A stretch of 64,000 nt of DNA, taken from contig JAMPFD010000003.1 in NCBI GenBank assembly GCA_023664625.1, forward strand, positions 106,384 to 170,383, read 5' to 3'. Below are positions 2,512-62,654 of the stretch, in pieces. Made by a program: the position numbers and the translations under genes. Origin of the DNA: Bacillota bacterium (GTDB lineage Bacteria > Bacteroidota > Bacteroidia > Bacteroidales > Bacteroidaceae). Within the stretch, counting starts at the first letter, position 1; each line of letters opens with the position of its first letter. The notes beneath the pieces were generated by a model that saw only the letters and a program-made list of their open reading frames with translations, searched no databases and was not told the origin of the DNA.

Positions 2512-2704
2512 TGTTTTTTATGGGTTGTAGGTTGTAAGGTTATGGGGGTTGCGGTCATGAGGTTATGAAGTTGTGGGCCATAAGGTTCTTTGTTTTTTAA
2601 CGCTGTACGGCATGGATATGCCATCGCATATTCATCCTTGTCATGAGGCTGCGGAAGAATATCCGTAAAACCGTATGAAACTTTAACCGTAAAACAACAA
2701 AAAA

Positions 2705-3862
2705 CTATATTTTCTTCTTCCAGCACACGCGCTTCTTATGGTTGCGGTGCTCAAACATGTCCCACTGTCCCTGCACGGCGGTGTTGGTCTCCATCTCCAG
2801 CTGCGTCTCCGCCCATTTCACGCCATATTTCAGGAAATAAGGGATAAGGTCGTAGAAGAAGAGGGCATTGACTCCCTTGTTGCGGTATTCAGGGAGCACA
2901 CCGATGAGAAGCAGGTCTATTCCTTCCGACTTATGGGAGAGAAGGAAGCGCAGCAGATGGAACCAGCCGAAAGGCAGGAGCCTGCCACGGCGGCATTTCT
3001 GCAGTACTTTAGCCATGGAGGGGACAGTGATGCCCACACCGACGATGTCGTGTCCCGGTGTGTTCCAGTCTTCCACAAGGGTCACGAGGTTCATGTCGAG
3101 AACCAAGGAGAACTTGCTCACCAGCTGCTTTATCTGCCTGTCGGTCAGCTCACTGTAACCGTACAGGTCTTTGTAAGTGTCGTTTATCAGTGAAAAGACC
3201 TTATGCCCGATGTTCTCCTTGCCGAAAAGCTCCCGGCGCTTCACCTTCCTTATGTGAAGGTTGTAGCGCTTCATCACCATCTCGGAGATTTTCCTGTGCT
3301 TCTCCGGCATCTTCTCCGGCATGAGGATATTGTACTCGTTATAGCGGTTGTCAACCTCGAAACCGCCTATTTCCTCAAAGATTTTCGGATAATACTCGTA
3401 ATTATAGAGAGTGGCGATGGTGCTCAGTTCGTCAAAGCCATGGACAAGCATGCCCTCGCTGTCCATGTCTGTGAAGCCGAGAGGTCCTGCCATCTGCTCC
3501 ATGCCGTGCCTCCTGCCATAGTTCGCCACGGCACCGAGCAGAGCTTCGACAACGGCTTTGTCCTCTACAAAGTCTATCCAGCCGAAGCGCACGTCTTTCC
3601 TGCCCCACTTCCCGTTGGCCTTGTGATTGATGATTGCGGCCACCCTGCCGGCGAGCTTGCCGTCACGGAAAGCCATGTAATATTCCGCCTCACAGAATTC
3701 AAAGGCGGCATTGCGGTCTTCGGAGAGCGTGTCAACCTCGTCGCCGTAAAGCGGAAGGACATCGTATGGCGAACCTTTATAAAGGTCGTAATGAAAATCA
3801 ATGAACTGCTTAAGGTCTTTCTTTGTCTCTACCTTGCGTATCTCTATATTTGTCATATTCAA
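2705..3862 (-). CDS. GNAT-like acyltransferase family protein (conserved hypothetical)
   Basis: 385-aa ORF with coding-like composition, no signal peptide and an acyl-CoA N-acyltransferase-like layout. Assigned from memory of Bacteroides homologues, not from a motif scan. Confidence 0.45.
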   Translation of the reverse strand: MNMTNIEIRKVETKKDLKQFIDFHYDLYKGSPYDVLPLYGDEVDTLSEDRNAAFEFCEAEYYMAFRDGKLAGRVAAIINHKANGKWGRKDVRFGWIDFVEDKAVVEALLGAVANYGRRHGMEQMAGPLGFTDMDSEGMLVHGFDELSTIATLYNYEYYPKIFEEIGGFEVDNRYNEYNILMPEKMPEKHRKISEMVMKRYNLHIRKVKRRELFGKENIGHKVFSLINDTYKDLYGYSELTDRQIKQLVSKFSLVLDMNLVTLVEDWNTPGHDIVGVGITVPSMAKVLQKCRRGRLLPFGWFHLLRFLLSHKSEGIDLLLIGVLPEYRNKGVNALFFYDLIPYFLKYGVKWAETQLEMETNTAVQGQWDMFEHRNHKKRVCWKKKI

Positions 3863-4375
3863 TGATTTGAGTCATGGCGGGATTCTTCCGTCCCTGCATA
3901 TACAGATGTTTGGGCGCGTCCGCGCATAAAACGGTACAAAGATAATAAAAATAAACGTATCATTAACGTTTTACCATATAAAATTATTTTTTTTTAGTTC
4001 TTTCCGCAATCCCCGCAACTATTCAGCGGATTACTATCACAGATTTACAGTGCAATACAAATCAGAGTCAACCTCTATTTCAGGAAAAAGCACTCATTTG
4101 TGAGTTGTCTTTCAGCTGTCTGCTTCTGTAACGGATTGCTTTTCTTGTAATTTATTTGTTTTAAGTAACTGTTGGAAATTAGTTAATACTAAAAAACGCA
4201 GTTATTTTTTTTAGGCGGTTAGTGTACGGAACCGAAGGAGCAATGCGGGCATTGTGACTGAGTGACAACTTTCCCGACAAGCCATACGGGCAGAACGAAA
4301 CTTATTTCAGCTATGCCGTGGCAAGGGACAGTGCGCGTAGCGTCAGCAAGCGAGTGCACTAAATGACAAAAAAGA

Positions 4376-4529
4376 ACGTTTTCGTTAAGCCAGATGAGCA
4401 GAGTTAAGTTTACTTAAACTCTGCCATGGCGAGAAAAGGTAGAATGAAATTCAACGTTTTCGTTAAGCCGGATGAGCAGAGTTAAGTTCACTTGAACTCT
4501 GCCATGGCGAGAAAAGGTAGAATGAAATT
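4376..4529. repeat. Tandem direct repeat, two units of about 77 bp plus a partial third, each with an internal hairpin
   Basis: The unit aacgttttcgttaagccRgatgagcagagttaagttYacttRaactctgccatggcgagaaaaggtagaatgaaattc occurs at 4376-4452 and 4453-4529. Each unit has the inverted repeat cagagtt...aactctg and the palindrome gccatggc. Confidence 0.8.
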
Positions 4530-4775
4530 CAACAAGTTTTAATGAGAAAACGTTATATTATAAAATAATTATCAATAGTTACTTATGCCCGCTGAACAGC
4601 TACCCCCTGCTCCACAGCCGCAGGGTCCTTGCCGCAGGCTCTCTGTCCGTTCTGTCACAAAGCTGCCGGCCGTTGTCTGTCCGGCAGGCAAACACCTGTC
4701 TGCCCTGCCGGCTCTCACCACAATGGCACACGGACTGCATCCCCAAGACGGACAGGGCGGACACGGGCCAAACAC

Positions 4776-4858
4776 AAAAAGGTTATCTTTGACACTGCAA
4801 AAGGTTACGGTTTACCACATAAAAGGTTACCCTTCGTAATGCAAAAGGTAACCTTTTA
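4776..4858. repeat. REP-like array A: four units of about 22 bp with the core AAAAGGTTACC(N)TTT
   Basis: Units aaaaggttatctttgacactgc, aaaaggttacggtttaccacat, aaaaggttacccttcgtaatgc and aaaaggtaaccttttacgccac, immediately 3' of the stop codon of the minus-strand gene 4885..6135. Confidence 0.8.
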
Positions 4859-4884
4859 CGCCACCGTCCATATCCGGCTGAACA

Positions 4885-6135: not shown

Positions 6136-6334
6136 GGTCGGTAGTATTGGATTTTAAATGGATTTGTATGCTTTTTCCGTGAAAAATAAAAAATTATGAT
6201 GCAAAGATATAAAGAATTTGCCAAATAATTAGTAAATTTGTGGCAAATTATGCCATTCCGTTCTGCATGCAATGTTTTTCGGGAGAAGATGCGTGCAGCA
6301 ATGCTGTATGGTCAAAAAAACAAGAAAACCGACT

Positions 6335-7369
6335 ATGGATGAAGATTTCGACATAAGGCAACAAGGACAGAGAGCTACTGAGAAAGACTTCGAAAATGCT
6401 CTCCGCCCGCTCGAATTCGGCGATTTCACCGGACAACAGAAGGTCGTGGAGAACCTTCAGGTCTTCGTGGAAGCGGCGAAATACCGTGGCGAACCTCTCG
6501 ACCACACACTCCTCCACGGACCTCCGGGACTCGGAAAGACGACACTCTCGAACATCATCGCCAACGAACTCGGAGTGGGATTCAAGATAACTTCCGGCCC
6601 TGTCCTCGACAAACCGGGCGACCTCGCCGGAATATTGACGTCCCTGGAGCCTAACGACGTGCTGTTCATTGACGAGATCCACCGCCTCAGCCCTGTCGTG
6701 GAAGAATACCTTTATTCTGCCATGGAGGACTACCGCATAGACATCATGATCGACAAGGGTCCTTCGGCGAGAAGCATACAGATTGACCTTAACCCGTTCA
6801 CACTCGTCGGCGCGACGACGCGCTCCGGACTTCTGACGGCTCCGCTGCGTGCGCGCTTCGGAATAAACATGCACCTTGAATACTACAATCCCGAGACCCT
6901 GATGCGCATCATCCGGCGCTCGGCGAAGATTCTAAGGGTGCCTATCTCCGACAAGGCTGCCATGGAGATAGCGCGACGCTCACGTGGCACGCCGCGTATC
7001 GCCAATGCCCTGCTGCGCCGCGTGAGGGACTTCGCACAGGTAAAGGGCAACGGAAGCATAGACACGGCCATAGCGGAGATGTCCCTGACAGCACTGAACA
7101 TCGACTCATTCGGACTGGATGAGATTGACAACAAGATTCTTCTGACCATCATCGACAAGTTCAGGGGCGGCCCCGTGGGCATCTCCACCATCGCCACAGC
7201 CATCGGTGAGGATGCAGGTACTGTGGAGGAGGTCTACGAACCTTTCCTCATCATGGAGGGCTTCATGAAAAGAACGCCGCGCGGACGCGTACTCACGGAA
7301 CTGGCATACCGGCATCTCGGAAGGGACATCTACACCTCCGGAGAGCGGCAGCCTTCACTCTTCGACTGA
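6335..7369 (+). CDS. ruvB: Holliday junction branch migration helicase RuvB
   Basis: Walker [24 protein letters not shown], sensor [10 protein letters not shown] and a C-terminal winged helix. The start is moved to the ATG at 6335 (MDEDFDIRQ...), because the ORF track begins upstream at an alternative start. Confidence 0.93.
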
Positions 7370-8372: not shown

Positions 8373-8396
8373 AGCCCTGATAAACGGCAAGAAAAA

Positions 8397-14524: not shown

Positions 14525-14611
14525 CAAAAGGACAGGTAACGCTTCACATGGCAAAAGGTAACGGTTGACAATGCAAAAGGTAACCTTTCAAATTCTGAAA
14601 GGTTACCTTTT
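14525..14611. repeat. REP-like array B: four units of about 22 bp with the core AAAGGTAACC(N)TTT
   Basis: gcaaaaggacaggtaacgc..., gcaaaaggtaacggttgacaat, gcaaaaggtaacctttcaaattc and tgaaaggttaccttttatcacg, lying between the convergent 3' ends of gdhA and the 14727..17852 gene. Confidence 0.8.
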
Positions 14612-14726
14612 ATCACGTCTACGATATTTTAACGTCCGTCCATCTTTTCGGGTTGTCAAGATTGTTTGTATTCCGTCATTACTGCAGGCAAATACGACTT
14701 CATGCTTACATAAAGACACATTGCCA

Positions 14727-19865: not shown

Positions 19866-20054
19866 TGGATTATAAGGTTTTACGGTTATAAGGCTATAGG
19901 TGTGTGTGGTGGTATTGTCATCGGGCTTGGTTTTGGGGTTTCAGGGCGCAGGTTACAGGAGTTTTGGGGTTGGCGGTTATGCAACAGTTCCGGAGATGTC
20001 TCCGTACAAACATAAGACCATACATCCTTACGGCCCAGCCATCATCCCCGAGGA

Positions 20055-20643: not shown

Positions 20644-20727
20644 CAAAAGGTGACACTTTACATTGAGGGAAGTCACCTTTTACCCTGTCAGCCGTTACCT
20701 TTCGGCATGCGGAAGGTCACCTTTTGC
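20644..20727. repeat. REP-like array C: four units with the core AAAGGTGAC / GTCACCTTT
   Basis: gacaaaaggtgacacttta, gaagtcaccttttaccc, ccgttacctttcggc and ggaaggtcaccttttgcacg. It overlaps the last codons of the ATPase gene and lies upstream of ribF. Confidence 0.75.
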
Positions 20728-23331
20728 ACGGCGGTAGATCTCACCCGCCCAAAGTACGGGAGAGGTGAGGACGAAAATCCATATCCAGTCGGAGACGGAG
20801 AGCGGTACGCAACGGAACATTGCACCACCGTAACTGACCATGAGCCACTGGCCGGCGAGGATGACAAGGAGCACAAGACAGAAACTTCTTGATGCCCACA
20901 GCCGCCTGAAGGCACTGTGGCGGGAGCCTATGCAGCGGGCATTGAAGAGGTTCCACCACTGGAGCATCACGAAGACCGTAAAGAACCGGGTAAGTTCATG
21001 AGGGTCCACACCGGCATGGTTCGTGTCACCGCCGAAGAAGTCAAATCCGTATTCGCAATAGATAAGGTAAGCGAACATGACGGCAAACATCAGGAGTCCC
21101 GTGACTACTATGCCGCGGATTATCGGCATACTGAGGATAAAGTCTGTCTGACAGCGGGGCTTCTCCGCCATCACCTCACATGAGGGAGGGAGGGACGAGA
21201 GGGCAAGGGCGGCGAAAGTGTCCATGATTATGTTCACCCACAGTATCTGGGTCACCGTCAGAGGCATCTCCGTACCCACCAGGGAGCCGGCTATGACGAG
21301 GAGCAGTGCCGCAACGTTCACCACAAGCTGGAAGAAAAGGAACCGCTGGATGTTCCTGTACAGGGAGCGTCCCCACATCACGGCGTTGGCGATGCTGCCG
21401 AAAGAGTCGTCAAGAAGAGTCATGTCCGATGCCTCCTTGGCAACGTTTGTGCCTGAACCGAGCGACAGTCCGACATGGGCATGGTTAAGGGCGGGAGCGT
21501 CATTCGTGCCGTCACCCGTCACCGCCACCACCTGCCCCTGCTTCTGAAGGAGCTGCACGAGACGCTGCTTGTCCTGCGGACGGGCACGGGACATCACGCA
21601 CAGGTTCCTTGCCACTTCTCCCGCCTCGTCATCGGAAAGGGCGGCGAACTCCGCTCCGCTGATGCTCAGCCTGCCGGAAAGAGCCGATGTGGAGGCGGCA
21701 CCGGGACGGACGGCATTGCCGGCACCGTCGACAAGTCCTATGCGGCGGGCTATCTCAAGTGCCGTGGCGTCAACATCACCCGTGACAATCTTCACCTCTA
21801 TCCCAGCATCATGGCACCTGCGGACGGCCTCAGGAACATCACTGCGGACGGGATCAGAGATACCGAAGACCGCCTGCAGCCTGCCGTCAAGGGCCATGGC
21901 CAGGGTGCGCATGGCTTTCTTCTGGTAGCCGGCAAGGGTCTTGCGTATCTCGGCAAGGGCATCAGGAGCAAGGTCACACTGTGCAAGGATTATCTCCGGC
22001 GCACCTTTTATATATGTATGCACCTTCCCGCCGGCATCACGGACGGTGGTGGACATCTGCTTTGTCTCCGTGGAGAACGGCTGCTGCCCGACAATCTCCA
22101 TGCCCCGGCGCAGGGAAAGATAATCAGCGCCACGGTCCCTGAGCCACAGGAGGAGGGCAACCTCCGTCGGATTGCCTATGCCTTTGTCACCGTCAAGATT
22201 GGCGGTGGTATTGACGGATATTCCCTTGTAAATCTCCTGCACGACACCATCGTCGACCTCCGTTGCGCCGGAAACCGGAACGGAGCATTCCTGCACCGTC
22301 ATACGGTTTTCCGTAAGCGTGCCGGTCTTGTCAGTACAGATTACCGTCACCGCGCCCATTGTCTCACAGGCATGGAGCTTGCGGACAAGATTGTTGCTCC
22401 TGAGCATGCGGCGCATGTTCAGCGCGAGGGAGAGCGTGACGGCCATGGGAAGACCTTCGGGAACAGCCATGACGATGAGAGTGACGGCCATCATGAAATA
22501 TTTGAGCACCACACGTGACATTGCGACATAGTCGGCACCGGCACTGCCGAAAGCTTCCCATAGGGGATTGACAAGAACATCGTGACCGAGGAAGAGAACG
22601 GCAGAGAGGATTGAGAACGAGACGCCAAGTCTGTTGATTACTTTTCCGAGACGGTCGAGCTGAAGGTTCAGCGGGGTCTTCACTCCGGATTGCTCTCCCG
22701 AGGAGCGTGCAACCTTGCCGATCTCCGTCCCGTTGCCCACGGCTGTGACGACAAAGCGTCCTTTGCCGTTCATCACCATTGACGAACGCAGCACGTAATT
22801 GGCAGCATAGGCGGACTCCCCGTCACCTTTCCCAACGGGAACCACGGCACTCTTTGTGGCTATCGGCTCACCTGTGAGCATCGATTCGTCAATCTGAAGC
22901 GAGTTGCTGCTGTCAAGGACTCCGTCGGCGGGAATCTCATCGCCTGTCTCCACAAGGACGGTGTCGCCGACGACAATATCCTTCCGTGCCACGAGGCATA
23001 CCCGGCCGTTGCGTATGACCTTCACCTGCTGCTCCTCGTTGAGCCGGGTGAGGACGTCGAATTTCCGTGCGGCGTCCATCTCGAAAAGGAAACCTACGGT
23101 GGTGGCAAGGATAATGGCGAAGAAAATGCCTATGGTTTCTATATACTCATTCTCTATCACCGCCAGCACGAGGGATACGAGGGCGGCAGCGAGGAGTATC
23201 TTTATGATAGGGTCTTTGTACTTATCAAGATAGAGCTTCCAGAGGGATTCTCTCTTCGGAGGTGTGAGGAGGTTCCATCCGTGCTCACGGCGCGAGTCGG
23301 TAACCTCTTGGTCGTTAAGTCCTGAAATCAT
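20695..23331 (-). CDS. P-type cation-transporting ATPase (Ca2+/PMCA-SERCA type, P2 subfamily)
   Basis: 878 aa from the ATG at 23331 (MISGLNDQEVTDS...). Phosphorylation motif CTDKTGTLT, TGDN-like VTGDVDATA, GDGTNDAPAL and 10 predicted TM segments. The track ORF extends 47 codons further into the A/C-rich leader, which is not coding. Confidence 0.9.
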   Translation of the reverse strand: MISGLNDQEVTDSRREHGWNLLTPPKRESLWKLYLDKYKDPIIKILLAAALVSLVLAVIENEYIETIGIFFAIILATTVGFLFEMDAARKFDVLTRLNEEQQVKVIRNGRVCLVARKDIVVGDTVLVETGDEIPADGVLDSSNSLQIDESMLTGEPIATKSAVVPVGKGDGESAYAANYVLRSSMVMNGKGRFVVTAVGNGTEIGKVARSSGEQSGVKTPLNLQLDRLGKVINRLGVSFSILSAVLFLGHDVLVNPLWEAFGSAGADYVAMSRVVLKYFMMAVTLIVMAVPEGLPMAVTLSLALNMRRMLRSNNLVRKLHACETMGAVTVICTDKTGTLTENRMTVQECSVPVSGATEVDDGVVQEIYKGISVNTTANLDGDKGIGNPTEVALLLWLRDRGADYLSLRRGMEIVGQQPFSTETKQMSTTVRDAGGKVHTYIKGAPEIILAQCDLAPDALAEIRKTLAGYQKKAMRTLAMALDGRLQAVFGISDPVRSDVPEAVRRCHDAGIEVKIVTGDVDATALEIARRIGLVDGAGNAVRPGAASTSALSGRLSISGAEFAALSDDEAGEVARNLCVMSRARPQDKQRLVQLLQKQGQVVAVTGDGTNDAPALNHAHVGLSLGSGTNVAKEASDMTLLDDSFGSIANAVMWGRSLYRNIQRFLFFQLVVNVAALLLVIAGSLVGTEMPLTVTQILWVNIIMDTFAALALSSLPPSCEVMAEKPRCQTDFILSMPIIRGIVVTGLLMFAVMFAYLIYCEYGFDFFGGDTNHAGVDPHELTRFFTVFVMLQWWNLFNARCIGSRHSAFRRLWASRSFCLVLLVILAGQWLMVSYGGAMFRCVPLSVSDWIWIFVLTSPVLWAGEIYRRAKGDLPHAER

Positions 23332-23440
23332 TTTGTACGGTTGTACTGTTTGACGGTTATAGGGTTCGTAAGGTTGTAGGTCTTTGGTATGGGGCGCAGG
23401 TCGGGGTGCAGGGTAAGGTCTTATGGTTTTGTGCGTTACG
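23332..23440 (-). promoter_or_regulatory. A/C-only leader with CATAACC and CCGTACAA repeats upstream of the ATPase
   Basis: The coding-strand sequence cataaccctgcaccccgacctgcgccccataccaaagacctacaaccttacgaaccctataaccgtcaaacagtacaaccgtacaaaATG contains almost no G or T runs. Confidence 0.5.
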
Positions 23441-23539
23441 GGGGATGATGTCCGGTACTCCTGAGGGCACACAAAAAAGTTCCCACCACTCCGCCATGTC
23501 AGGCGGAGTGATGAGAACCGTCATTTATGTCTGCTTCTC

Positions 23540-26224: not shown

Positions 26225-26298
26225 GGACTTGTAGCTCAGTTGGTTAGAGCAACAGACTCATAATCTGGAGGTCCCTGGTTCAAGCCCAGGCTGGTCCA
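26225..26298 (+). tRNA. tRNA-Met (anticodon CAT); integration target of the mobile element
   Basis: Folded by hand into a cloverleaf: acceptor ggacttg/ctggtcc, D-arm gctc-agttggtta-gagc, anticodon loop ctCATaa, T-arm cctgg-ttcaagc-ccagg. There is no encoded CCA. A terminator hairpin (ggagttacgaatttcgtaactcc + T6) follows at 26307-26336. Confidence 0.85.
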
Positions 26299-26344
26299 CT
26301 TTCAAAATCAAGGAGTTACGAATTTCGTAACTCCTTTTTTCTTA

Positions 26345-26368
26345 CCCTTGCGTAAACAATGCGTAAAC
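26345..26368 (+). repeat. Left-end arm-type repeat (GCGTAAACAA, two copies)
   Basis: gcgtaaacaatgcgtaaacaaac lies immediately inside the left direct repeat. The same 23-mer is at 45593-45616, about 110 bp inside the right direct repeat. Confidence 0.7.
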
Positions 26369-26899
26369 AAACTGTTTGAGTTGGCCGTGTTTAACACATA
26401 GAATTTCTATGATGCTCCATGTTATCCTGTAATACCTTTACCCGAAGTTTTGTTAGTGTGACGACACTTTACGATTAAATAAACTCAAATATACTCCATT
26501 TGTATATTGATTTACAGAATAATGTTGTAACTTTGCAAATGCAATGCATTTATGGCAAGCCATGACCAAGAGGTGCTTTTTCCTAATAAGGAAAAGTGGA
26601 TTTGTCTAACCTTCGTGGGAGGGTCATCCCATTCCGATGAATCGAAGCGTAGAGGGAGTATTAGTCGGAGAATACTCTATTTCAAACAATACGTGAGAGT
26701 TGCTTCAGGGGTTGAGACCGATTAGCAGAAGCCCGGTTACCAGTCAGCGACAGAAGACAACGAGATTGCACCGCTGCATATAACGACAATGTTTTTATCT
26801 GTCAAAGGATAGGGACTCAGTGGTTATATGCAGCGTTTTGTATATGTACGCCTCACATTGCAAAGCGGCTGTATTCAGAGGTTATGTTGAACATAAACA

Positions 26900-28402: not shown

Positions 28403-28408
28403 TCCGTA

Positions 28409-30153: not shown

Positions 30154-30157
30154 TGGT

Positions 30158-41538: not shown

Positions 41539-43642
41539 ATCCGCTATTGTTGTATTCTTCGAAAAGATTTTCTGGTTTCACTTCAACAAAGTGTGAACCA
41601 TTCTTCTCATTATTTATTAAATAGGATTTATTCACAATCGGTTGAATATATTGATATTCTTCTTCCGTCAATTCTTTTTTAAGAAGGGGAAAGAGAATCA
41701 CTTGTTTTGAAACATTTGGATAGAACTTCGTGAGTACATTCTTTGTATGTTGTGGGTCAAATTTCTGCATAGGACTATCTATGAAAACAGGAAAATCAAT
41801 TTCTGTTTCATCAACCAAAGCACTTAACAGCGCAGATGCAAACATCTGGCGTTCACCCATGGAAAGAATGCTATTGTCAATTTTCTTGTCATCATATCCA
41901 AATAGGCAGATGTCAACATCATCGCCATTGCCATTGATGTCAACAATTACCTTTTTAACAAGATTGGTCTTGTGCAAATATGATTGAAGTTTTGTCTCTA
42001 ATTTCTTCGCAAGAGCCTTTTTCTTTTCATCTTTGAAGCGAATAAGGAATTTTTGTATCGTATTGATCAGACGCGTAGCCTCATTGTCAACTGCGCGGTT
42101 CTGATCAGACACATTTATTTTTTTAGAGAGAATCTCCTTTTGCTTTTTGTGAGCAATCACTTGTTCTTGAAGTGATTCTATTTCACTTTGTCTTTTCCCG
42201 ATCTCAATACCTATAGAATCTATCTGACGGTCGATATTCTCTTTTCGGGTTCTCAAATCTTGAACATAATCGCTCTCTGCCTTTTTCTCAGCCTCTCGAA
42301 TGTTCTTTTCGATTGTGTATAATTCTGATTTAGCCTTGGTGTATTTGTTAATTAGATTTTCAAAAGAGGACTTACTATCTTTGATTTTCGCAATAATATG
42401 CGTAAATTCATCAATCTGTCCTTGGCTAAAGTCATGCAACGTACTGAAGTGCTCAAACTTACTTTCATCAGAAACATTGTAAAAATGCTTTTTGATGAGT
42501 TGTCTGATTTGAAGCTCGTAGAAGTCTCTAGTCTTTATATCTATTGAGAAATGAAGATCCTTCTTTGCTTCTTCAATATCGCCAAGTATGACATCAGTTT
42601 TATCATTAACTCCTTCCAACTGAAGCTTGTTCTGCTTATACGCTTTTTCTGTTTCTAATTGGGTTGAAAGTTCAGCCATAATACCTCCAGCCAAGCCAAA
42701 TGGAATAAGACTGTATAAATCTTTAAGACTGTCATCTGCTTCCCTTAACACTATGCCAAGTTCCTCCTTTCGATTATTCAATTTTTGCAATTCATCGGCT
42801 GACATCATATCGCCTTCACGAATCAATTTTGATTGAAGTTCGGCAGAATTATGACGTTTAAACACTCTGTCTTCTTCCAAATTAGATATTTCTTCGATCA
42901 ATCTGCCAATTTCTCCTTCTTTAAAATCAATATCTGCGATTAGCCCATTAAACTCGCGCTTCTCTTGAGGTTTAGCAGATGATTTCCTATAATCATCCTG
43001 AATTCTAACCAACTCATTTTTGAGATCTTCGTATTTCTGTATGCCAAGAACTTGAGAATATGCAAGACTTAAATCTTTTCGTTGTTCTGGAGTATTTATT
43101 TGAGCAAATGAAACTATCTTTTCTGCATCAAAGAAAAAGAATTTTGCAATCTCTATTGGAAGTATGTAATCCCGAATAAATATTTCCTCTTCTTTTGCAA
43201 TTTCCTCTTTTGATCCCGTGAACAAATCGTTCTTCCGGCCATCAATCAGAATTTCTAACTCGTCATCATAATTTGTTGCACTATCATAGGAACGAACAAT
43301 TGTTATCTCGGTGCAAGGCGTATCAGGAATTTCTACGTCCGTAAATGTAACGGACACAGAGAACCGAGTTTCGCCTTCTTTCTGTGCAGCAAAGTTGAGA
43401 CTATTACCAATGTATTTACTATAACCTCCTTTTTCGTCAATTTCTTTACGATATAGTTCATCAACCTTCCCCATGTTCTTACCATATAGGCACCAAACTA
43501 ATGACATGAGAAAAGTTGTTTTGCCGAAACCATTATTACCACTGACGATAATCAGATTCCTATTCCCATCGGGAAAAAGTTCAATCTTATTCTTCCCTTT
43601 ATAAATTCGGAAATTATTAAGTTCTATTTCGCGTATCGTCAT
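41528..43642 (-). CDS. dndD: DndD-like SMC/ABC-type ATPase (DNA sulfur-modification protein DndD / SspC family)
   Basis: 704 aa. N-terminal Walker A VSGNNGFGKTTFL, a long coiled-coil, C-terminal ABC signature LSMGERQ, and a D-loop/Walker B FPVFIDSP. A 4-nt overlap with the dndC-like gene suggests translational coupling. Confidence 0.75.
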   Translation of the reverse strand: MTIREIELNNFRIYKGKNKIELFPDGNRNLIIVSGNNGFGKTTFLMSLVWCLYGKNMGKVDELYRKEIDEKGGYSKYIGNSLNFAAQKEGETRFSVSVTFTDVEIPDTPCTEITIVRSYDSATNYDDELEILIDGRKNDLFTGSKEEIAKEEEIFIRDYILPIEIAKFFFFDAEKIVSFAQINTPEQRKDLSLAYSQVLGIQKYEDLKNELVRIQDDYRKSSAKPQEKREFNGLIADIDFKEGEIGRLIEEISNLEEDRVFKRHNSAELQSKLIREGDMMSADELQKLNNRKEELGIVLREADDSLKDLYSLIPFGLAGGIMAELSTQLETEKAYKQNKLQLEGVNDKTDVILGDIEEAKKDLHFSIDIKTRDFYELQIRQLIKKHFYNVSDESKFEHFSTLHDFSQGQIDEFTHIIAKIKDSKSSFENLINKYTKAKSELYTIEKNIREAEKKAESDYVQDLRTRKENIDRQIDSIGIEIGKRQSEIESLQEQVIAHKKQKEILSKKINVSDQNRAVDNEATRLINTIQKFLIRFKDEKKKALAKKLETKLQSYLHKTNLVKKVIVDINGNGDDVDICLFGYDDKKIDNSILSMGERQMFASALLSALVDETEIDFPVFIDSPMQKFDPQHTKNVLTKFYPNVSKQVILFPLLKKELTEEEYQYIQPIVNKSYLINNEKNGSHFVEVKPENLFEEYNNSGYAN

Positions 43643-44979
43643 GATTTCTTTTTATTTACAAATTCCTCTAAACGAGACTCAATTTCTGTTTTCAAGCCAC
43701 GGCGTCGCTGCATGAGTGACTTGCTTTTCTGAAGCATAAGAAGTTGCTCTATCAATTCACCTTCTTCAAGGTTCTCTTGGCAAATTTCTTTCATCAAATC
43801 TGCTTCCAATTTGTTTTTTATCTTGCCCTCTTCCATATTTAATGAGGAATTATAGATTTTGTTATATATTTCTGATACTTGATGTGCAAAGTTAAAATCT
43901 CGATACCAATTCACTTGAATTGCAATCAATTCTTGATCTGTAATGAGTTTTATTTCAGGATTATATTGTTGCAATTCATGTTGAACATTTAACAGTCCTT
44001 CCAACATTTTCGCTCTATATGTGAAAGTGTAGGATCCCATATCGTTCACGGCTCTTCTTCCATCCCGTCGCAACGGGAACCGATTCTCAATGATATTCCG
44101 TTCTTGATCCAGTTTTAACCTAAAATCATAAAGCGGTTGCATCCATTCTCGCCCATTTTTTATAAGCGAACGCATGGACTTATCATCCTTCACAACAGTA
44201 CAAGTCCAACAACCGAAACGACTTTGACCACAAGAACCATGACTTTTGTCTGTTACAACGGTTGGACATTCGTAATCGTCCGCACTCGCATCAACATAAA
44301 TGTTAAACAGGATTTTGTTATCAAATCCCCAAGGAGATGGAATGGTATTTATTATGTACCAGACTTCTTCTAACATCAATTCTTTGATTGGTGCATAGAC
44401 ATATGTATTTGTCAACAGAGTATGATTGGTAAGTCGCTTGCCATGAATTTCATGTTTCTTGATGGAACGAGCGCGAGTTGCACTTTCAGCCTTTCTTGTT
44501 CCTATTAAAATTATAGCTTCCCCACACTCGTCAACTTGTTCAATTATAAAACGAGCAGTAGGTTTAATTTTCATTTTCTCTGTACACCATCTAAATGCTG
44601 TGTTCGGGACAGGATAACCTTTCCCGATAACATTCACCCAAAATGAATCTTCCAATCGAGGCGTAGTCTTCCGGACAAAAATAGGCAAATCTTCTTCTCT
44701 CGCTTTTTTTTCTATCTGTTCAAGAACTTGATCAACATACGATGCAATTATAGGATTTTCAACCATTGTATCATTACATACTACATATATTGGTCTACGA
44801 AGTTGAAATGGCCCCGGTAGTTCTTTTAATTTTTCGAGCGCAATCCATACAAGCATTAATAATACTGTTGAATCTTTTCCTCCACTGAATCCTATAATCC
44901 ATGGTCGGGTTGATTCATCAGCATACGCATACTGGTCAAGAATTTCATCTATTATATATTCAATACGTTTATTCCTCAT
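43639..44979 (-). CDS. dndC: DndC-like PP-loop ATP pyrophosphatase (PAPS reductase fold) with a Cys cluster
   Basis: 446 aa with the PP-loop IIGFSGGKDSTVLL and the cysteine cluster CPTVVTDKSHGSCGQSRFGCWTCT, typical of the DndC/SspD Fe-S site. Confidence 0.75.
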   Translation of the reverse strand: MRNKRIEYIIDEILDQYAYADESTRPWIIGFSGGKDSTVLLMLVWIALEKLKELPGPFQLRRPIYVVCNDTMVENPIIASYVDQVLEQIEKKAREEDLPIFVRKTTPRLEDSFWVNVIGKGYPVPNTAFRWCTEKMKIKPTARFIIEQVDECGEAIILIGTRKAESATRARSIKKHEIHGKRLTNHTLLTNTYVYAPIKELMLEEVWYIINTIPSPWGFDNKILFNIYVDASADDYECPTVVTDKSHGSCGQSRFGCWTCTVVKDDKSMRSLIKNGREWMQPLYDFRLKLDQERNIIENRFPLRRDGRRAVNDMGSYTFTYRAKMLEGLLNVQHELQQYNPEIKLITDQELIAIQVNWYRDFNFAHQVSEIYNKIYNSSLNMEEGKIKNKLEADLMKEICQENLEEGELIEQLLMLQKSKSLMQRRRGLKTEIESRLEEFVNKKKS

Positions 44980-45018
44980 TTCGGATTTTTATCATAAATC
45001 AGACATTTGATTTATAGG

Positions 45019-45231
45019 TTAAAAAGTTTTAAAGTCTTTATTCACTAAATCGGTCAATTCGACATCTAATAGGTGTGATATTTTAATTAGGGTTTCAATA
45101 TCTGGCTGAGAACTATTTGTACACCATTTTGAAACGGTGGATGGGTTGACATTTAATTGCTCACACAACCACTTATTTGTTCTCTTCTTCTCCGCTAAAA
45201 CAACTTTCAGACGATTTATATCTGTTTCCAT
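45019..45231 (-). CDS. XRE-family HTH transcriptional regulator (controller-like), first gene of the operon
   Basis: 70 aa. LAEKKRTNKWLCEQLNVNPSTVSKWCTNSSQPDIETLIKISHLLDVELTDLV is a Cro/C1-type HTH. Lies 40 nt upstream of the dndC-like gene. Confidence 0.7.
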   Translation of the reverse strand: METDINRLKVVLAEKKRTNKWLCEQLNVNPSTVSKWCTNSSQPDIETLIKISHLLDVELTDLVNKDFKTF

Positions 45232-45728
45232 CTTGGCAAAATTTGTTATTTTCTCACAAAAATAGTGATTTCATTTCACTCGACAAAAGAAATGGATTAG
45301 TTTATGATAAAAATAACCAGAAATACTGATTTGAATCATTATAATAAACACAGTTGCTATAGAAGTTCTATTTATATGTTATCAATACACGTAGTGTCGG
45401 AGTTAGTGTGTAAGTTGGTGTTAGAGTTGATATTAAAAGTGTCAGAGTGTCCTTACTATCTATGTCTATAGTGCTAATACATTCTTGTCGCAAACCTCAA
45501 AAATAATTGCGACAACATCATGCCTTATGTCAATAGATGGTACTTGTATTTGTTAAATGGGCTTAGTACAGTCTTCGCTCCTGCTTGTTTCTGCGTAAAC
45601 AATGCGTAAACAAACTATTTCAGTTAGGGGGATTTAGTGAATTTCATAGAGGATAGCGAATTTTGCAACTAACTGATATTCAACAAAGATTAATAAAACG
45701 GACTATCACAGAATATCATCTTATCGTT

Positions 45729-47096: not shown

Positions 47097-47237
47097 TGGG
47101 GTTTACGGTTGTAGGTTATGGGGTGAGGTGTGGGAAAATTTTCCATACGGCAGGGATACGCGCCATGGCGCACCCGCAATCAAATGGATTATCACTGCAA
47201 CCGGCGGACTGACAAACCGGCGGACTGCCGGCGCAGG

Positions 47238-49970: not shown

Positions 49971-50275
49971 TATGTGAGTTTTTTTTATGGTTGTAGATTG
50001 GGGTTCCCGAATGCAGAGACGCCCCCTGTTCCTGAACTGCGGAACTTACATAATATCAATGCAAAAATACTCATTTCTCCGCACATACACATACGTACAT
50101 AACAATATTTAGCATTATTTGTAATGTGTATCTTAAAAAAACATAACAATTAACTATATAATAATGTGAACAAGATTATTTTGAGTATTTTTGCGCCCCG
50201 AAACGGCAGCGGTATGAACCACATGCCGGAATCTGCAACTAAAAGAAAGAACAAGAAAACATACAACAACCTACA

Positions 50276-54160: not shown

Positions 54161-54343
54161 GTCTCTCACGGTTGGGTATTGGGTCATGCGGTTACAGTTT
54201 TTCAGGTTGTAAGGCTGTACGGATGCATGCGAAAACAAACCGCACCACCTATGGCCCCGTACAGCCCATGCCCCTGCAGCCATAAAAACCGCACGCCCCA
54301 TAACCGAAAAACATATAACACCAAAAACGCATAACCGAAAACC

Positions 54344-54838
54344 ATGTCCTCATTCCGCAACGACATACTCCCGCTGAAAGACAAGCTCTTCCGTCTTGCA
54401 TTACGCATCACGATGCAGAGGGAAGACGCCGAGGATGTCGTGCAGGACACGATGATAAAGCTGTGGGGAAAGCGAGAGGCACTCGAGACCGTTGACAACC
54501 TCGAGGCCTTTGCCATGACAATATGCCGCAACAAGGCACTCGACCATGTCAGGCGCGCCGCCGCAGGGACAGTTTCCCTCGACGACAGAATGACCCTCAA
54601 CGAAGGCTCCATAAACCCTTATGACAGCATCTACGCACAAGAATCACTGCGCCATGTCAACTCCCTCATGCAGCAGCTCCCCGAGAAACAGAGGGCATGC
54701 ATGCACCTGCGGGACTTCGAAGGAAAGAACTACCGGGAGATTGCCGACATCATGGAGATGACGGAAGACCAGGTGAAAATCAATATCTTCCGTGCAAGAA
54801 AAGCCATAAAGAGTAAAATCCGCAGCAACCGGCAATAG
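54344..54838 (+). CDS. RNA polymerase sigma-70 factor, ECF subfamily
   Basis: 164 aa with region 2 (DAEDVVQDTMIKLW) and region 4 (REIADIMEMTEDQVKINIFRARKAI). Confidence 0.88.
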   Translation: MSSFRNDILPLKDKLFRLALRITMQREDAEDVVQDTMIKLWGKREALETVDNLEAFAMTICRNKALDHVRRAAAGTVSLDDRMTLNEGSINPYDSIYAQESLRHVNSLMQQLPEKQRACMHLRDFEGKNYREIADIMEMTEDQVKINIFRARKAIKSKIRSNRQ

Positions 54839-54906
54839 GAATCCCGCAGCCTGCAAACGAAAGCATGCAACCATAAAACCGCATACCCCACAAAAAAACA
54901 TACACA

Positions 54907-55905: not shown

Positions 55906-56171
55906 TGCGGGCTTCTAAGACAAGAAACCCGCCATCGGCCGGTCAGACAGGAAAAACAACGGCCCAAGCCGGTCAACGGCATCAGTCCGGGCCATCTGCA
56001 CCGACCTTCCACGAGAGAAACATGAAGCAGAAGGACATATACGGCGGACTGCATGGCCTGCTGGCTCCCGGGCTTCAACCGGCATGGAAAAGCCGGGAGC
56101 CATGAGCAGCGGCAAGCTTGCTCTCAATAAAAGTACTCTTTCAGGAAAACAGCTGATTTCCAGATAATGAC

Positions 56172-56253
56172 GAAAGGTTACCCTTTACACTGCGAACCGT
56201 TACCTTCCACATAGTCAAAGGTGACCTTTCGTAACGTAAAAGGTAACCTTTCG
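56172..56253. repeat. REP-like array D: four units around AAAGGTTACC / GGTGACCTTT
   Basis: gacgaaaggttaccctttacactg, cgaaccgttaccttccacatagt, caaaggtgacctttcgtaacgt and aaaaggtaacctttcgtcatat. Confidence 0.8.
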
Positions 56254-56449
56254 TCATATAAGCCATCCACTTTGCAGAGACGGAGCCGGAGGAATGTGCA
56301 CGCCTGTCTCATGAACTTTCAAGGCATAAGCATAAAAAAGAACGCCTTTCCCTCACTTATTTCAATAATTTTCACTAACTTTGCAAAGAAAATTAGTTAT
56401 TAAGGCGAGGGGATAGGAAGAGCGGTTATGATACGACAGACAAAAATGT

Positions 56450-56595
56450 CTCCGGCGCAGCTGCCGGACTATCCCCTGGCATAATAACCCTATAACCACA
56501 AAACCTAACCCCGCAGCCGTACAACCCAAGACCCAATAACCACAAAACCGTACAACTCCATAACCCAAAAACTATAACCCAAAACCCTAAAATCT
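56450..56595 (+). promoter_or_regulatory. A/C-only leader of about 150 nt with six ATAACC copies upstream of the GH43 gene
   Basis: ccctggcataataaccctataaccacaaaacctaaccccgcagccgtacaacccaagacccaataaccacaaaaccgtacaactccataacccaaaaactataacccaaaaccctaaaatctATG. Confidence 0.5.
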
Positions 56596-58956: not shown

Positions 58957-59056
58957 TTCCGGCATCACGCCGCCACGGCTGCCGGCGGCCAACGGACCAG
59001 CACCTGTCAAATAGACACCGTATTAAAAACATAAAAACAATACAACCGCAAAACAA

Positions 59057-60211: not shown

Positions 60212-60397
60212 GCGGAGACATGCCGGAAAGCCTGCCGGACGGCAAGAAAGAATCATGCATCATATATTTACAGGCAGCTGTAGGGAATTAGTCCACACCA
60301 AGATGAATCATTATAAATTAATTTCCGAAAGCTACTTGACATGACGGAAGCCGGCTGTGCCCTTCGTATAGACCGGTCTCCAACAGTTATTTGCAAG

Positions 60398-60448
60398 CAA
60401 AAGCCACAAGTCCGCATCTGCCCTCTCACAGATGCGGACTTGTGGCTT
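60398..60448. terminator. Perfect 21-bp hairpin; bidirectional terminator between convergent genes
   Basis: aaagccacaagtccgcatctg-ccctctca-cagatgcggacttgtggcttt. Confidence 0.7.
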
Positions 60449-60549
60449 TACATTCAAGCATTTACCGGCAATGATGCCCCGGAGCCGGGACGGAGCAGCA
60501 AAAGAGGACTCATGACCGTCCCTCTGCCCCATATCCCGGTAAGCCCAGC

Positions 60550-62298
60550 TCAGTTTTCCGTCTCTTTTCCGCTTTGCGGAGCGAGCAAGGCAGAATATCT
60601 CTCAGGGGCACCGAGTATGTCCAAAGCCTCCTTCACCTGCTTGTCATACCGGAAGCTGCTCTCTATGGCACCCGCCTGATAGTAGTAGCAGGTGACGATG
60701 TCAAAGGTTATCGCCTTCTTTATCATGTCGCGGTGATAGTCAAGCTCCGCTGCGAGGTCATGCCGCAGCTTTGCTTCCAGAGCCTCAAATTCATCCTTCG
60801 CACGGTCATAGTAGCCCTCGAAGCGTGCCACCTTCTCAAGGTCCTTGAGGAACCTGACACTCTCACGGTCGTACTTGAAGCCCGCCTCTACGGCACGGCG
60901 GCAGAAATCGTCATAGTCAGCGTCAGAGATTTGGAACTCACGTGCCGGAGCTATCTGCGGATGCTTTGCGACATAGTCCACGACATAGTCCATCATGACG
61001 TTGGTGGAGTCCAGTCCTGAGGTGGTGAGATACATCACGATGTTCGGCAGCGAGTCTGGCTTGACCTCCACATCTGGCATTATTCCTCCGCCGTCCCTCA
61101 CCGTCCTGCCGTGCAAGGTCTTGAATTCCCGCTTCAGGGAGTCAGCAACGGCCTCACGTGAGCCGCCGTTGGAATGCTTGTAGTTTATCGCCTGGATACA
61201 TCTTCCCGAAGGAATATAATAATGTGCCGTAGTCAGTTTCAGGTTGCCGTTATAGGGCACGTCAAGCGGGATCTGCACAAGTCCCTTGCCGAAAGTCTTC
61301 GTTCCCAGCACGACGCCGCGGTCAAGGTCCTGCAGCGTACCTGCCATTATCTCCGAAGACGATGCCGTTCCTCCGTTGACAAGCACGACGAGAGGCATCA
61401 GCGTGTCAATAGGAAGAGCCGTGGTCTTGTACTCACGGTTGGCGCGCGCAAGCTTTCCCTTTGTCTTCACGATACTGAGGTCTTCAGGCAGGAACAGGTT
61501 GAGTATGTTCACCGCCTCGGAAAGGGAGCCGCCCCCGTTGCCCCTCAGGTCAAAGACAAGGCTTTGCATGCCCTTGCGCTTCAGGTCTATGACGGCGTGG
61601 CGCACATCCTTGGAGCAGTCCTCGGTGAACTGGCTGAGGTTTATGTATCCCACGGAGTCCGTCAGCATGCCGTAGTACGGCAGGGCAGGCATCTGAATTG
61701 CACGCCTCGTAATCTTGAAGGAGAGCACCTGCCCCTTTCCCTCCATGGCATCCTTCTTCGTCTTTTTGGTCTTCCCGGCAGGAGTGCCGCCGGCATTTCC
61801 GGCAGCAGGACGCTGCACTTTCAGTATGAAACTCGTGCCTGCCTCACCGCGGAGATGCTCTGAGACATACGATGTGGACTTGCCCTTCATGTCCTCACCG
61901 TCGATGGAGAGGATTATGTCGCCCTTCTTCAGCCCGGCTTCCTGCGCCGGCATACCGAAATAAGGCTCGTTGATGACCGTCATGTCCTCCTTCAGATTAT
62001 AGGAGACAACGGAGCCGATGCCGCCGTACTTGCCGGTGATCATCTGCTTCAGGTCCTTCACGTCCGCCTGCGGATAGTACTCGGTGTAAGGGTCGAGGGA
62101 GCGGAGCATCGCCCTTATGCCCGTCTCCACCACCTCCTTGGCATCAAGAGAGTCAACATACATCATGTCAAGGTCACGGTAAATGTCACAGAAGATTTCC
62201 AGCTGCTTCGCAACCTCGAAGTTATGGTCGTCTTTCTGTGCCTTGCCGTACAGCGTTCCGAGTAAGGGGAACAGAAGGATAAATAGTGTTTGTTTCAT
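60550..62298 (-). CDS. S41 family C-terminal processing (tail-specific) peptidase
   Basis: 582 aa with a signal peptide, a PDZ region and an S41 catalytic region (GGTASSSEIMAG ... Ser/Lys dyad context). Confidence 0.88.
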   Translation of the reverse strand: MKQTLFILLFPLLGTLYGKAQKDDHNFEVAKQLEIFCDIYRDLDMMYVDSLDAKEVVETGIRAMLRSLDPYTEYYPQADVKDLKQMITGKYGGIGSVVSYNLKEDMTVINEPYFGMPAQEAGLKKGDIILSIDGEDMKGKSTSYVSEHLRGEAGTSFILKVQRPAAGNAGGTPAGKTKKTKKDAMEGKGQVLSFKITRRAIQMPALPYYGMLTDSVGYINLSQFTEDCSKDVRHAVIDLKRKGMQSLVFDLRGNGGGSLSEAVNILNLFLPEDLSIVKTKGKLARANREYKTTALPIDTLMPLVVLVNGGTASSSEIMAGTLQDLDRGVVLGTKTFGKGLVQIPLDVPYNGNLKLTTAHYYIPSGRCIQAINYKHSNGGSREAVADSLKREFKTLHGRTVRDGGGIMPDVEVKPDSLPNIVMYLTTSGLDSTNVMMDYVVDYVAKHPQIAPAREFQISDADYDDFCRRAVEAGFKYDRESVRFLKDLEKVARFEGYYDRAKDEFEALEAKLRHDLAAELDYHRDMIKKAITFDIVTCYYYQAGAIESSFRYDKQVKEALDILGAPERYSALLAPQSGKETEN

Positions 62299-62654
62299 TG
62301 TTTTTTATGGATTGTGTGTTTTACGGTTTTACGGTTATGAGACCCTACGGTTGGGCATGGCGGGTTCCATGGTTATGGGACATGCGGTTGCGGAGGCTTT
62401 CCGCCGGACTTGGCCGCGGGACTTCGGACTTGATGTCTTCCCGAAAAGCCATTTGAGATATATCCGCATGGCTCAGAACCTGAAACCTATACCTCACGGC
62501 CTGCTGCCGTAACCCCACAACACCCTATAATCATACAGCCCTTATAACCCTGAAACCATATCAATATTTTTTGCAAAGATACTACTTTTCCGCCTTTTTT
62601 CAACAAATAATGCATTTTTTTTAGAAAATATTTGGTAGTTTCAAAAAATAGCAG

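Follow-up and report, generated by a model that had tools for sequence, protein, structure and literature searches.

Why are unrelated genes along a single bacterial contig preceded, immediately before their start codons, by leaders that contain very little G and that reiterate the word ATAACC? The question is raised by a 64,000-nucleotide (nt) stretch of contig JAMPFD010000003.1 (assembly GCA_023664625.1, positions 106,384 to 170,383), hereafter the window, in which an earlier note had described A/C-only leaders with a recurrent heptamer. We found that this "heptamer" is the unit of a degenerate, decayed 8-nt tandem array, and that the leaders are decayed members of a lineage-specific family of modular intergenic elements that persist in crisp form in a sister species. 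The anatomy and dynamics of this family are established: it is an octamer simple-sequence family with fixed polarity and hypervariability. As to function, we tentatively favor, at somewhat less than an even chance, the view that AC-rich arrays are kept at start codons as open loading or standby zones for initiation without Shine-Dalgarno pairing, the motif being a by-product of array growth.

Within the window, 10-12 native genes have mRNA-sense leaders of this kind, 35-125 nt in length, with 0-13% G, 72-85% A+C, and 7-20% T. Over the 60 nt that precede the start codon, the fraction of G is 0.02-0.17 (0.17 for dapB and 0.02-0.12 for the others) and that of A+C 0.67-0.85; the fraction of G in native coding sequence is 0.27. 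The C/G ratio of the tracts ranges from 3 to >10. As previously noted, G-poor, A/C-rich tracts lie directly upstream of the starts of the parE, CPBP protease, ATPase, WbqC, dapB, sigma-70, PRK-family (first described as kinase-like), GH43, and S41 peptidase genes. The stricter description of these leaders as A/C-only did not hold, since T accounts for 7-20% of the sequence and a single 40-nt window, located in the PRK-family leader, reaches ≥90% A+C. Tracts are 73-123 nt long for parE, CPBP, ATPase, sigma, GH43, and S41, and 35-54 nt long for WbqC, dapB, PRK, and AhpC. Weaker versions precede topA and a 160-amino-acid open reading frame (ORF), p160; the topA leader, A-rich and with 13% G, is a weak member of the set.

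Tracts of ≥40 nt with ≥80% A+C number 17, compared to 7.4 ± 2.4 after shuffling in 500-nt blocks, and 13 of the 15 intergenic AC tracts are in sense orientation and adjacent to a start codon (p = 0.007). A greedy ORF map of the window includes 48 genes, 32 of them native and 16 in an AT-rich integrated element; an AC leader is carried by 10 of the 32 native genes and by none of the 16 island genes (p = 0.02). The end of the last AACC falls at various positions between −1 and −29 relative to the start codon, so that there is no fixed Shine-Dalgarno-like register. An A-rich stretch of 10-20 nt (CATAAAAAACA and similar) closes the leaders, 7/10 of which have A at −3, a common situation in Bacteroidota. 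Overall, the leaders fit the Bacteroidota initiation region that dispenses with Shine-Dalgarno pairing (Baez 2019): they are A-rich, weakly paired, lack any Shine-Dalgarno-like G-rich run, and mostly have A at −3.

Analysis of word content and periodicity indicates a tandem-repeat origin. Across 833 nt of leader sequence, ATAACC occurs 14 times vs. 2.0 expected from 1000 dinucleotide shuffles, TACAACC 8 vs. 0.5, AACCGTA 7 vs. 0.34, and AACC 46 vs. 22, while the 28 copies of ATAACC/GGTTAT outside leaders (~127 kb, both strands) are at chance level; the reiteration of ATAACC in leaders, one of the original observations, is thus borne out, and the equal frequency elsewhere that would have spoken against it was not seen. 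Units end in AACC, recurring each 7-8 nt, with a pooled lag-8 self-identity of 0.455 (baseline ~0.27) and an AACC-to-AACC spacing with a mode at 8 and secondary peaks at 14-16. At low stringency, Tandem Repeats Finder detected periods of 7, 8, or 16 in six leaders. The units are of the NNNNAACC class, including CATAACC(N), TACAACC(N), GTAAAACC, CGCATAACC, and CGCATAAC, and 9-14-mers such as ATAACCGTAAAACC (S41 and CPBP leaders) are common to separate leaders. The tracts, and the GT-rich arms found upstream of some of them, are as follows (window coordinates).

2512-2590, minus strand: parE leader, a degenerate octamer array of CATAACC, TTACAACC, and CTACAACC, then CATAAAAAACA, with the ATG at 2511; G 0.03, A+C 0.80, Tandem Repeats Finder period 7-8 at 2523-2541.
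2663-2705, minus strand: GT-rich arm of the parE gap, which begins at the stop codon of the upstream gene and forms a local hairpin.
19866-19960, minus strand: Rce1/CPBP protease leader, AC-rich array TTATAACCGTAAAACC, predicted unpaired, period 8 at 19870-19898.
23332-23440, minus strand: P-type cation ATPase leader, an intercistronic AC-rich array of period 8 (5.6 copies at 23333-23378), preceded by a terminator-like hairpin at 23473-23519.
47097-47140, minus strand: WbqC leader, CCCATAACCTACAACCGTAAACCCCA, with TTG as start codon.
49971-50005, minus strand: dapB leader, a short AC tract CTACAACCATAAAAAAAACTCACATA, with a −7 promoter box at 50057-50069.
50230-50275, plus strand: topA leader, a weak, A-rich member (G 13% within 60 nt of the start, 9% across the tract); alone among these leaders, it is conserved in the sister species.
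54167-54222, plus strand: GT-rich arm of the sigma-factor gap, GGTTGTAAGG and GCGGTTAC, beginning right past the upstream stop codon.
54271-54343, plus strand: sigma-70 family gene leader, AC-rich array with CATAACCGAAAAAC three times and period 16 (Tandem Repeats Finder, 54300-54345).
54853-54906, plus strand: PRK-family gene leader, AC-rich, with the sole 40-nt window of ≥90% A+C.
56376-56476, plus strand: GH43 −7 box TAACTTTG (56376-56383) and 5' hairpin (56407-56476), upstream of the AC tract and both conserved in the sister species.
56473-56595, plus strand: GH43 leader, the longest AC tract, predicted unpaired, with two CCGTACAA, five exact ATAACC copies (six had been reported), and an internal duplication of ~44 nt.
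59008-59056, plus strand: AhpC/DUF4369 gene leader, A/C-rich, with TAAAAACA twice and ATACAACCGCAAAACAA.
62299-62395, minus strand: S41 peptidase leader, AC tract CATAACCGTAAAACCGTAAAAC ... CATAAAAAACA, period 8 at 62318-62336.
62507-62581, minus strand: GT-rich 5' arm of the S41 leader (62507-62559), behind a −7 box TATCTTTG (62574-62581).

The window is 100% identical to two contigs (L161 and L162) of assembly GCA_023667065.1, and its ParE protein shares 96% identity with the counterparts in Palleniella muris and P. intestinalis; judging from this identity, the source is placed as a Palleniella-like member of the Prevotellaceae. In total, ~84 kb of this genome were covered including the L161/L162 flanks (~20 kb), in which no additional AC leaders were found. 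A sister species is represented by four strains (loci L163-L166), obtained via a TopA protein search and contig look-ups, which are 98% identical among themselves, 78-88% identical to the window in coding DNA, and syntenic with it across WbqC, dapB, topA, SKI, AAK, sigma, PRK, GH43, p160, and AhpC. In L163, a crisp modular element occupies 11/13 co-directional or divergent gaps and consists, in order, of a GT-rich octamer array (GGTTTTAC/GGTTATGC or GGTGGTTT/GGTTGTTT type), a GGCTAT/ATAGCC octamer core (ATAGCCNN and/or NNGGCTAT), and an AC-rich octamer array (AACCGTAA/AACCGCAT or AACCAAAC/CCACTAAA type). Sister-species arrays have a period of 8 throughout, with up to 13 units, and in the 144-154 nt gaps of L163 the element begins just past the stop codon and finishes 0-20 nt short of the next ATG. 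The polarity is always GT then AC, which reads identically on both DNA strands, and the order AC then GT was never seen. Solo AC arms are always in sense orientation directly before ATGs, both in the window and in the sister species. The sense strand also has the longer and more variable AC arm.

The window arrays are decayed (period 7-8, imperfect), and the matching GT arm is missing for most AC arms. In the parE, sigma, and S41 gaps both arms are found, in the same order as in the sister species, and exact words are common to window and sister elements, including ACCGTAAAACCG and, in the GT arm of the parE gap, the 17-mer acggttttacggatatt. Given these shared words and this identical arm order, the window leaders are decayed members of the sister-species element family.

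Comparison of strains and species revealed an extreme turnover of these elements. Between L163 and L165, substitutions amount to 0.44% in coding sequence and 4.96% in gaps, and 12/12 indels are located in gaps, the clean ones being 8, 16, and 80 nt long. Three strains have the same p160 gap except that the AC arm gained two extra octamers and some altered units, and the SKI leader is (CCGCATAA)5 in one strain and (CCGTAAAA)5 in the others. The SKI-AAK gap of L163 is built from a unit type different from that of L164-L166, the two arms being swapped together and AC composition kept. At a larger distance, orthologous leaders of the window and the sister species (GH43, sigma, PRK) are unalignable, yet AC-rich in both. 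The orthologous leaders of species with 95-96% identical ParE or TopA likewise gave no alignment, and hence no conserved sequence or covariation.

The same holds for the parE leaders of three Palleniella species, which are unalignable apart from (C)CTCATGA words reiterated upstream of the AC tract (window 2600-2660, L001 9900-9960, and L002 9900-9960). P. muris and P. intestinalis instead use a 9-nt TATTGACAG-type unit, which forms palindromes and is accompanied by a short AC stretch at the ATG; their gaps (L001 and L002) also contain the period-9 units ACTGACAAT and AATGTCAGT and palindromes like GTCAATATTGAC, with examples at L001 11954-12071 and 13641-13718. In 160 further loci from Prevotellaceae and Bacteroidales, arrays of short period are ~9x denser in gaps than in coding sequence, are built from species-specific units with a period of 7 or 14 in 27/44 cases, and, in Prevotellaceae, are as frequent downstream of genes as upstream. 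The diagnostic words of the window family were absent from the other compared loci, except for a (CTCACAAC)6 array in L094 and a single GGCTAT-core pattern match in L010. The former, an AACC-type array on the minus strand of a Prevotella metagenome contig (~5040-5120), appears to lie within coding-looking sequence. Other Prevotella have leaders of longer or different tandem units directly before starts (L097/L099 9860-9931, L094 9830-9946, and L090-L092 ~4232-4325), among them three copies of a 20-mer (AACCATAAATCTAAAGANATA), a 24-mer, and (CCTCTTAACC)9 ending at the ATG. In the sister species, a convergent-gene gap (L163 2047-2216) contains four tandem ~22-nt units (aatatatacgctttctgttttt) unrelated to the octamer family.

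The genomic context ties the tracts to start codons rather than to transcription starts, as they are found both behind their own promoters, with TAnnTTTG −7 boxes 90-283 nt upstream of the dapB, topA, CPBP, GH43, and S41 starts, and in promoter-less gaps behind co-directional genes (parE, sigma, PRK, p160, AhpC, ATPase, and WbqC). Being located downstream of these boxes or in promoter-less intercistronic gaps, the tracts were rejected as promoter parts. They were also rejected as coding low-complexity N-termini, since 8- and 16-nt strain indels shift the frame, many units contain TAA, and Pfam domains begin at the ATG past the tract. One such case is the ATPase gene, for which longest-ORF calling reads the leader as an N-terminal extension starting at a GTG (VCPQEYRTSSPV...); this extension is spurious, as had been suspected, with Pfam Cation_ATPase_N aligning from residue 3 of the ATG-started protein. 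A tract had also been proposed upstream of an ORF at 63208, but 63210-63252 falls inside the called ORF (MATTSDNHTADNHNL...). This 1172-amino-acid AAA_11/AAA_12 helicase-like gene has, just past its called start (region 63208-63252), an AC-rich stretch that reads MATTSDNHTADNHNL in translation and represents either an array-derived low-complexity N-terminus or sequence ahead of a true start further downstream, e.g., the Met in ...REPEMADHLF.

Predicted RNA structures differ between the window leaders and the intact elements. AC leaders are predicted to be less paired than other native leaders, at 0.35 vs. 0.55 for positions −100 to −1 (p = 8.6e-6) and 0.31 vs. 0.48 for positions −40 to +10 (p = 0.005), and the GH43, CPBP, and ATPase tracts are unpaired in minimum-free-energy folds. 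This is in line with the original view of the tracts as unstructured leaders in an organism that lacks Shine-Dalgarno pairing; they are 5' leaders or intercistronic spacers. The GT arm of the S41 leader pairs with the distal AC tract, leaving ~42 nt free before the AUG (z = −3.07), and the two arms of the sigma leader pair weakly (z = −1.5). Several sister-species elements are predicted to form near-perfect stems of 35-40 bp (z = −9.0, −5.3, −11.8, and −8.9; weaker in the sigma gap, −3.4), and the sister PRK gap, with arms of unlike unit type, does not fold (z = +0.13). In 12/14 elements, the sense RNA is 1-32 kcal/mol less stable than the antisense and has fewer G-U pairs, because in sense orientation it is AC, not GU, sequence that makes up the surplus array. 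In these models, the weaker sense folding is the opposite of what selection for a sense-strand RNA hairpin predicts, and matches selection for little mRNA structure. A role of wobble pairs in tying the hairpin to the sense strand was rejected, as AC arms are nearly devoid of G and U and sense folds are worse than antisense ones.

We thus propose the following scenario. Arrays would lengthen and shorten through replication slippage, their copies would spread or be replaced via recombination between copies, and selection would retain the AC-rich side beside start codons, longer and in mRNA-sense orientation. RNA composed nearly exclusively of A and C is unable to self-pair and lacks AUG, GUG, and UUG as well as Shine-Dalgarno-like runs. 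Upstream of the normal A-rich initiation region, such a stretch could offer the 30S subunit an open zone for loading or standby, perhaps via protein bS1. The working mode might be similar to that of the CA-rich enhancers and CA-repeat tails of enterobacteria, and the recurrent heptamer would be a by-product of array origin rather than a specific recognition site. The variable distance to the start codon is compatible with a standby or enhancer function, not with a Shine-Dalgarno-like site. Previous work indicates that initiation in Bacteroidetes relies on an unstructured A-rich region, with bS1 proposed as its reader (PMC6847099), and that ACA and CA-rich elements (PMC3879156) and CA-repeat 5' tails (PMC5934652) enhance initiation in a position-independent and length-dependent manner. 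A preprint on the S. copri transcriptome reports 5' untranslated regions of ~70 nt and no consensus ribosome-binding site. We infer a role as a permissive or enhancing unstructured platform from the composition and position of the tracts and from analogy with these systems.

Several observations weigh against this proposal. The functional part of the argument draws on composition, position, and analogy, and about two thirds of native genes lack such leaders. The fast turnover of leaders also fits weak or no selection, and the heptamer arrays of other Prevotellaceae do not have a consistent sense-strand C>G bias (10 vs. 6, not significant). The stems of the sister species bury most of the AC arm, leaving 4-20 nt free before the AUG; where these predicted stems form, an unstructured platform cannot be the whole story. 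Finally, a C>G bias, lack of pairing, and periodic CC likewise define loading sites for Rho.

The predicted stems raise the alternative of a function as RNA hairpins, similar to the interspersed palindromes REP/BIME, ERIC, BOX, and Correia, with GT and AC arms pairing in the transcript and the window AC leaders being decayed hairpin halves. Such stems could protect the 3' end of the upstream cistron, provide an RNase III processing site, or couple translation between stop and start codons. This alternative, which we consider unlikely overall while giving it some weight, draws support from the strongly negative z-scores of the sister-species stems, from their position (starting 3-10 nt past the stop codon and ending 4-20 nt before the AUG), from the joint exchange of both arms where the unit type differs between strains, from complete hairpins right past stop codons with no start codon close by, and from the pairing of the two arms in the window S41 leader. 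However, 12/14 elements fold worse in sense than in antisense, and arm mismatches on the sense strand are C-A, whereas selection on RNA pairing would favor G-U. In addition, gaps with unlike arm types, such as the PRK gap, fail to fold, most window AC tracts are partnerless, and a palindromic DNA origin explains the arm complementarity equally well. Alternatively, the arrays might be neutral or selfish simple-sequence DNA without function, i.e., slippage-prone octamer arrays and palindromic copies piling up in gaps, with the sole selection acting against GU-rich, pairing-prone sequence bearing GUG, UUG, or AUG beside a start codon. This overlaps with the loading-zone proposal and chiefly differs in denying a positive effect. 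The extreme turnover between strains and species, the different units of sister species (e.g., the 9-nt TATTGACAG type in P. muris), the Prevotellaceae short-period arrays (27/44 with period 7 or 14, ~9x denser in gaps, and downstream as often as upstream), and the absence of arrays from most genes all suit it; still, we judge it unlikely, given that solo AC arms are strongly orientation-biased and adjoin start codons, that the AC arm is longer on the sense strand, and that AC composition persists at orthologous leaders (GH43, sigma, and PRK) despite full sequence replacement.

Another possible function of the AC tracts is that of Rho loading (rut) sites masked by GT arms, leading to polarity or attenuation when the downstream gene is untranslated; the GT-before-AC polarity would then sequester the rut-like arm once made. 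The tracts are unpaired with a C/G ratio of 3 to >10, and the longer ones have CC every 8 nt over 60-125 nt. An unstructured, C>G-biased stretch of about 60-80 nt with spaced YC dinucleotides, as expected of a rut site, is present in the parE, CPBP, ATPase, sigma, GH43, and S41 tracts, but not in the shorter WbqC, dapB, PRK, and AhpC ones. Moreover, rut sites are C>G-biased with little structure, and each subunit of E. coli Rho contacts 5 nt, with linkers of 4-5 nt in between and a preference for A and C (PMC12360218). Rho entry sites hidden by secondary structure are also a known design, e.g., at pgaA. Against this, half of the tracts are just 35-55 nt long, the repeat period is 8 and not 9-10, and unmasked solo AC arms are the rule in the window. 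Tracts also abut the starts of housekeeping genes (parE, dapB, and the weak member topA), where constitutive termination would be costly. The comparison is based on E. coli Rho, and Bacteroidota Rho may have a different sequence preference. On balance, we regard this role as doubtful. Least probable in our view, and only slightly credible, is that the repeated unit is the specific binding site of a multimeric or multi-domain RNA-binding protein (bS1, cold-shock, RRM, or KH) or of a GU-rich small RNA, which would pair with (C/U)A(C/U)AACC much as GcvB does with its CA-rich targets. Unlinked leaders do share words far beyond composition-based expectation, including the 9-14-mers such as ATAACCGTAAAACC (S41 and CPBP), GU-rich complements of the motif are present in cis, GcvB targets CA-rich enhancers (PMC3879156), and protein readers were likewise proposed for TAACTGA repeats (PMC4679880). 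Yet the unit varies among sister species and even among strains at one locus, its distance to the start codon is variable, and common descent of array units explains the shared words. Within the 84 kb we saw no candidate for a trans-acting RNA, and at the gathering score of Rfam 15 the window matches two tRNAs only and sister locus L163 matches no family. A 16S rRNA gene, sought in the compared loci for complementarity between motif and rRNA, was not found there. The heptamer as a specific recognition motif, as initially suggested, is therefore best replaced by the unit of a degenerate 8-nt array that varies among strains and species. A conserved trans-acting reader of ATAACC is unlikely because of this array-derived unit, its membership in a lineage-specific repeat family with complementary GT-rich arms, the unalignable orthologous leaders, the unit changes between strains, and the 9-nt unit of P. 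muris.

Several known systems share some of these features. The repetitive extragenic palindromic (REP) sequences and their mosaic BIME forms, ERIC, BOX, and Correia elements are intergenic palindromes of modular, mosaic build that are dispersed and transcribed, also occur inside operons, and vary in copy number and modules. They have a defined consensus rather than tandem octamers and no A/C-vs-G/T arm asymmetry, and REPs require RAYT transposases. The elements described here are similarly dispersed, modular, and intergenic, but are built from tandem octamer arrays with A/C-vs-G/T arm asymmetry. Their predicted hairpins are pronounced in the sister species (z of −5 to −12); in the window, where most AC tracts are partnerless, pairing of GT and AC arms is confined to the S41 leader (z = −3.07) and, weakly, the sigma leader (z = −1.5). 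No RAYT transposase gene turned up in ~84 kb of the genome, in which no dedicated search was made, and no published consensus matches. The omega leader of tobacco mosaic virus is G-less and combines a (CAA)n region with direct repeats of 8 nt (ACAAUUAC); it stimulates initiation that does not depend on Shine-Dalgarno pairing, including in E. coli, and S1 is reported to bind it. Omega differs in being viral, single-copy, and fixed in sequence. Heptamers of the short tandemly repeated repetitive (STRR) class were reportedly described in cyanobacteria by Mazel in 1990. Together with long simple sequence repeats, these resemble our arrays as lineage-specific intergenic tandem arrays of 7-8 nt units thought to be born by slippage. 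Heptamers are the commonest class of long simple sequence repeats, as they are in the other Prevotellaceae loci examined here. The general class, with units of 5-11 nt in prokaryotes (Mrazek 2007, as summarised in PMC4679880), is therefore already known; neither a start-codon polarity nor a GT-core-AC palindrome is reported for such arrays.

The nearest published parallel is the TAACTGA heptamer repeats, which Beggiatoaceae, Cyanobacteria, and a few Bacteroidetes carry in forward orientation immediately ahead of start codons, and for which a translational role and S1, Csp (cold-shock), or CsrA readers were proposed (PMC4679880). Both families consist of a short, G-poor tandem unit with a length that is not a multiple of three, are nearly all intergenic, forward, and ending a few nt before starts where they replace the Shine-Dalgarno sequence, precede genes of unrelated functions including essential ones, and differ in unit-length steps between strains (here within the sister species). 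In contrast, the unit here is 8 nt long, of NNNNAACC types, i.e., another family of the same kind, the window arrays are decayed, and the complementary GT arrays and GGCTAT/ATAGCC core, which form long palindromes, have no described equivalent in the TAACTGA repeats. For enterobacteria, C/A-rich and ACA enhancers are known in the GcvB targets gltI, yifK, and dppA (PMC3879156), as are CA-repeat standby tails (PMC5934652). These, too, are C/A-rich, unpaired (a prediction in our case), and upstream of the initiation region; the enterobacterial elements act in a position-independent and length-dependent manner and can be silenced by complementary G/U-rich RNA. However, they are 10-30 nt long and accompanied by a Shine-Dalgarno sequence, whereas the leaders here are 35-125 nt long, have none, form tandem arrays, and are known from sequence alone. 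Finally, rut sites (PMC12360218) share a C>G bias, an unstructured character, and a preference for A/C in the stretches bound by Rho subunits, and differ from tracts that abut starts, are often <60 nt long, and have a repeat of 8 rather than 9-10. No description of such elements was found in the literature for Prevotella or Bacteroides. What is new, then, is the octamer unit, the GT-core-AC palindromic architecture spanning from stop to start, and the strain-level exchange of cassettes.

The way in which Bacteroidota ribosomes choose start sites and load without Shine-Dalgarno pairing is only partly understood. AC leaders offer a natural series, with variable lengths, presence or absence of a masking arm, assayable genes, and strain differences, that is suited to asking whether initiation in this phylum is promoted by unstructured C/A-rich sequence, and whether Rho is a competitor for that sequence. 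A bolder possibility, which we hold to be improbable though worth stating, is that these hypermutable octamer elements (GT array, GGCTAT core, and AC array) constitute a hitherto undescribed genome-wide system in Palleniella-like Prevotellaceae, filling most stop-to-start gaps and acting as heritable, rapidly adjustable tuning knobs of translation or translational coupling for housekeeping genes. If so, the number of unpaired AC octamers and the match between arms would set the openness of the initiation region, and slippage and cassette exchange would yield expression diversity among strains. From a practical standpoint, the arrays mislead ORF callers into spurious N-terminal extensions and are hotspots of assembly and alignment error in gut-metagenome genomes.

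Other repeated features were observed in the window. Palindromic boxes of the form AAAGGTNACCTTT are found as pairs or triplets spaced by exactly 22 bp in five intergenic regions (4778-4860, 14534-14612, 20700-20730, 56170-56255, and 62961-63039), as well as in the 6246-6560 gap of sister locus L163; these could be the operator of one transcription factor, or another dispersed repeat. The gene-free stretch 3857-4884 includes a 78-nt unit present twice in tandem (4375-4533, 96% identity) with an internal hairpin (gagcagagttaagtt...aactctgcc), which could be a duplicated small RNA or repeat element. The island whose genes lack AC leaders (26225-45613) resembles an integrated mobile element, with a tRNA gene at 26225-26298, an integrase-like ORF at 26900-28402, and a coding G+C of ~40% vs. 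55% in native genes. It is flanked by two identical 22-bp direct repeats (TGCGTAAACAA, at 26349-26370 and 45592-45613), which are likely its attachment sites.

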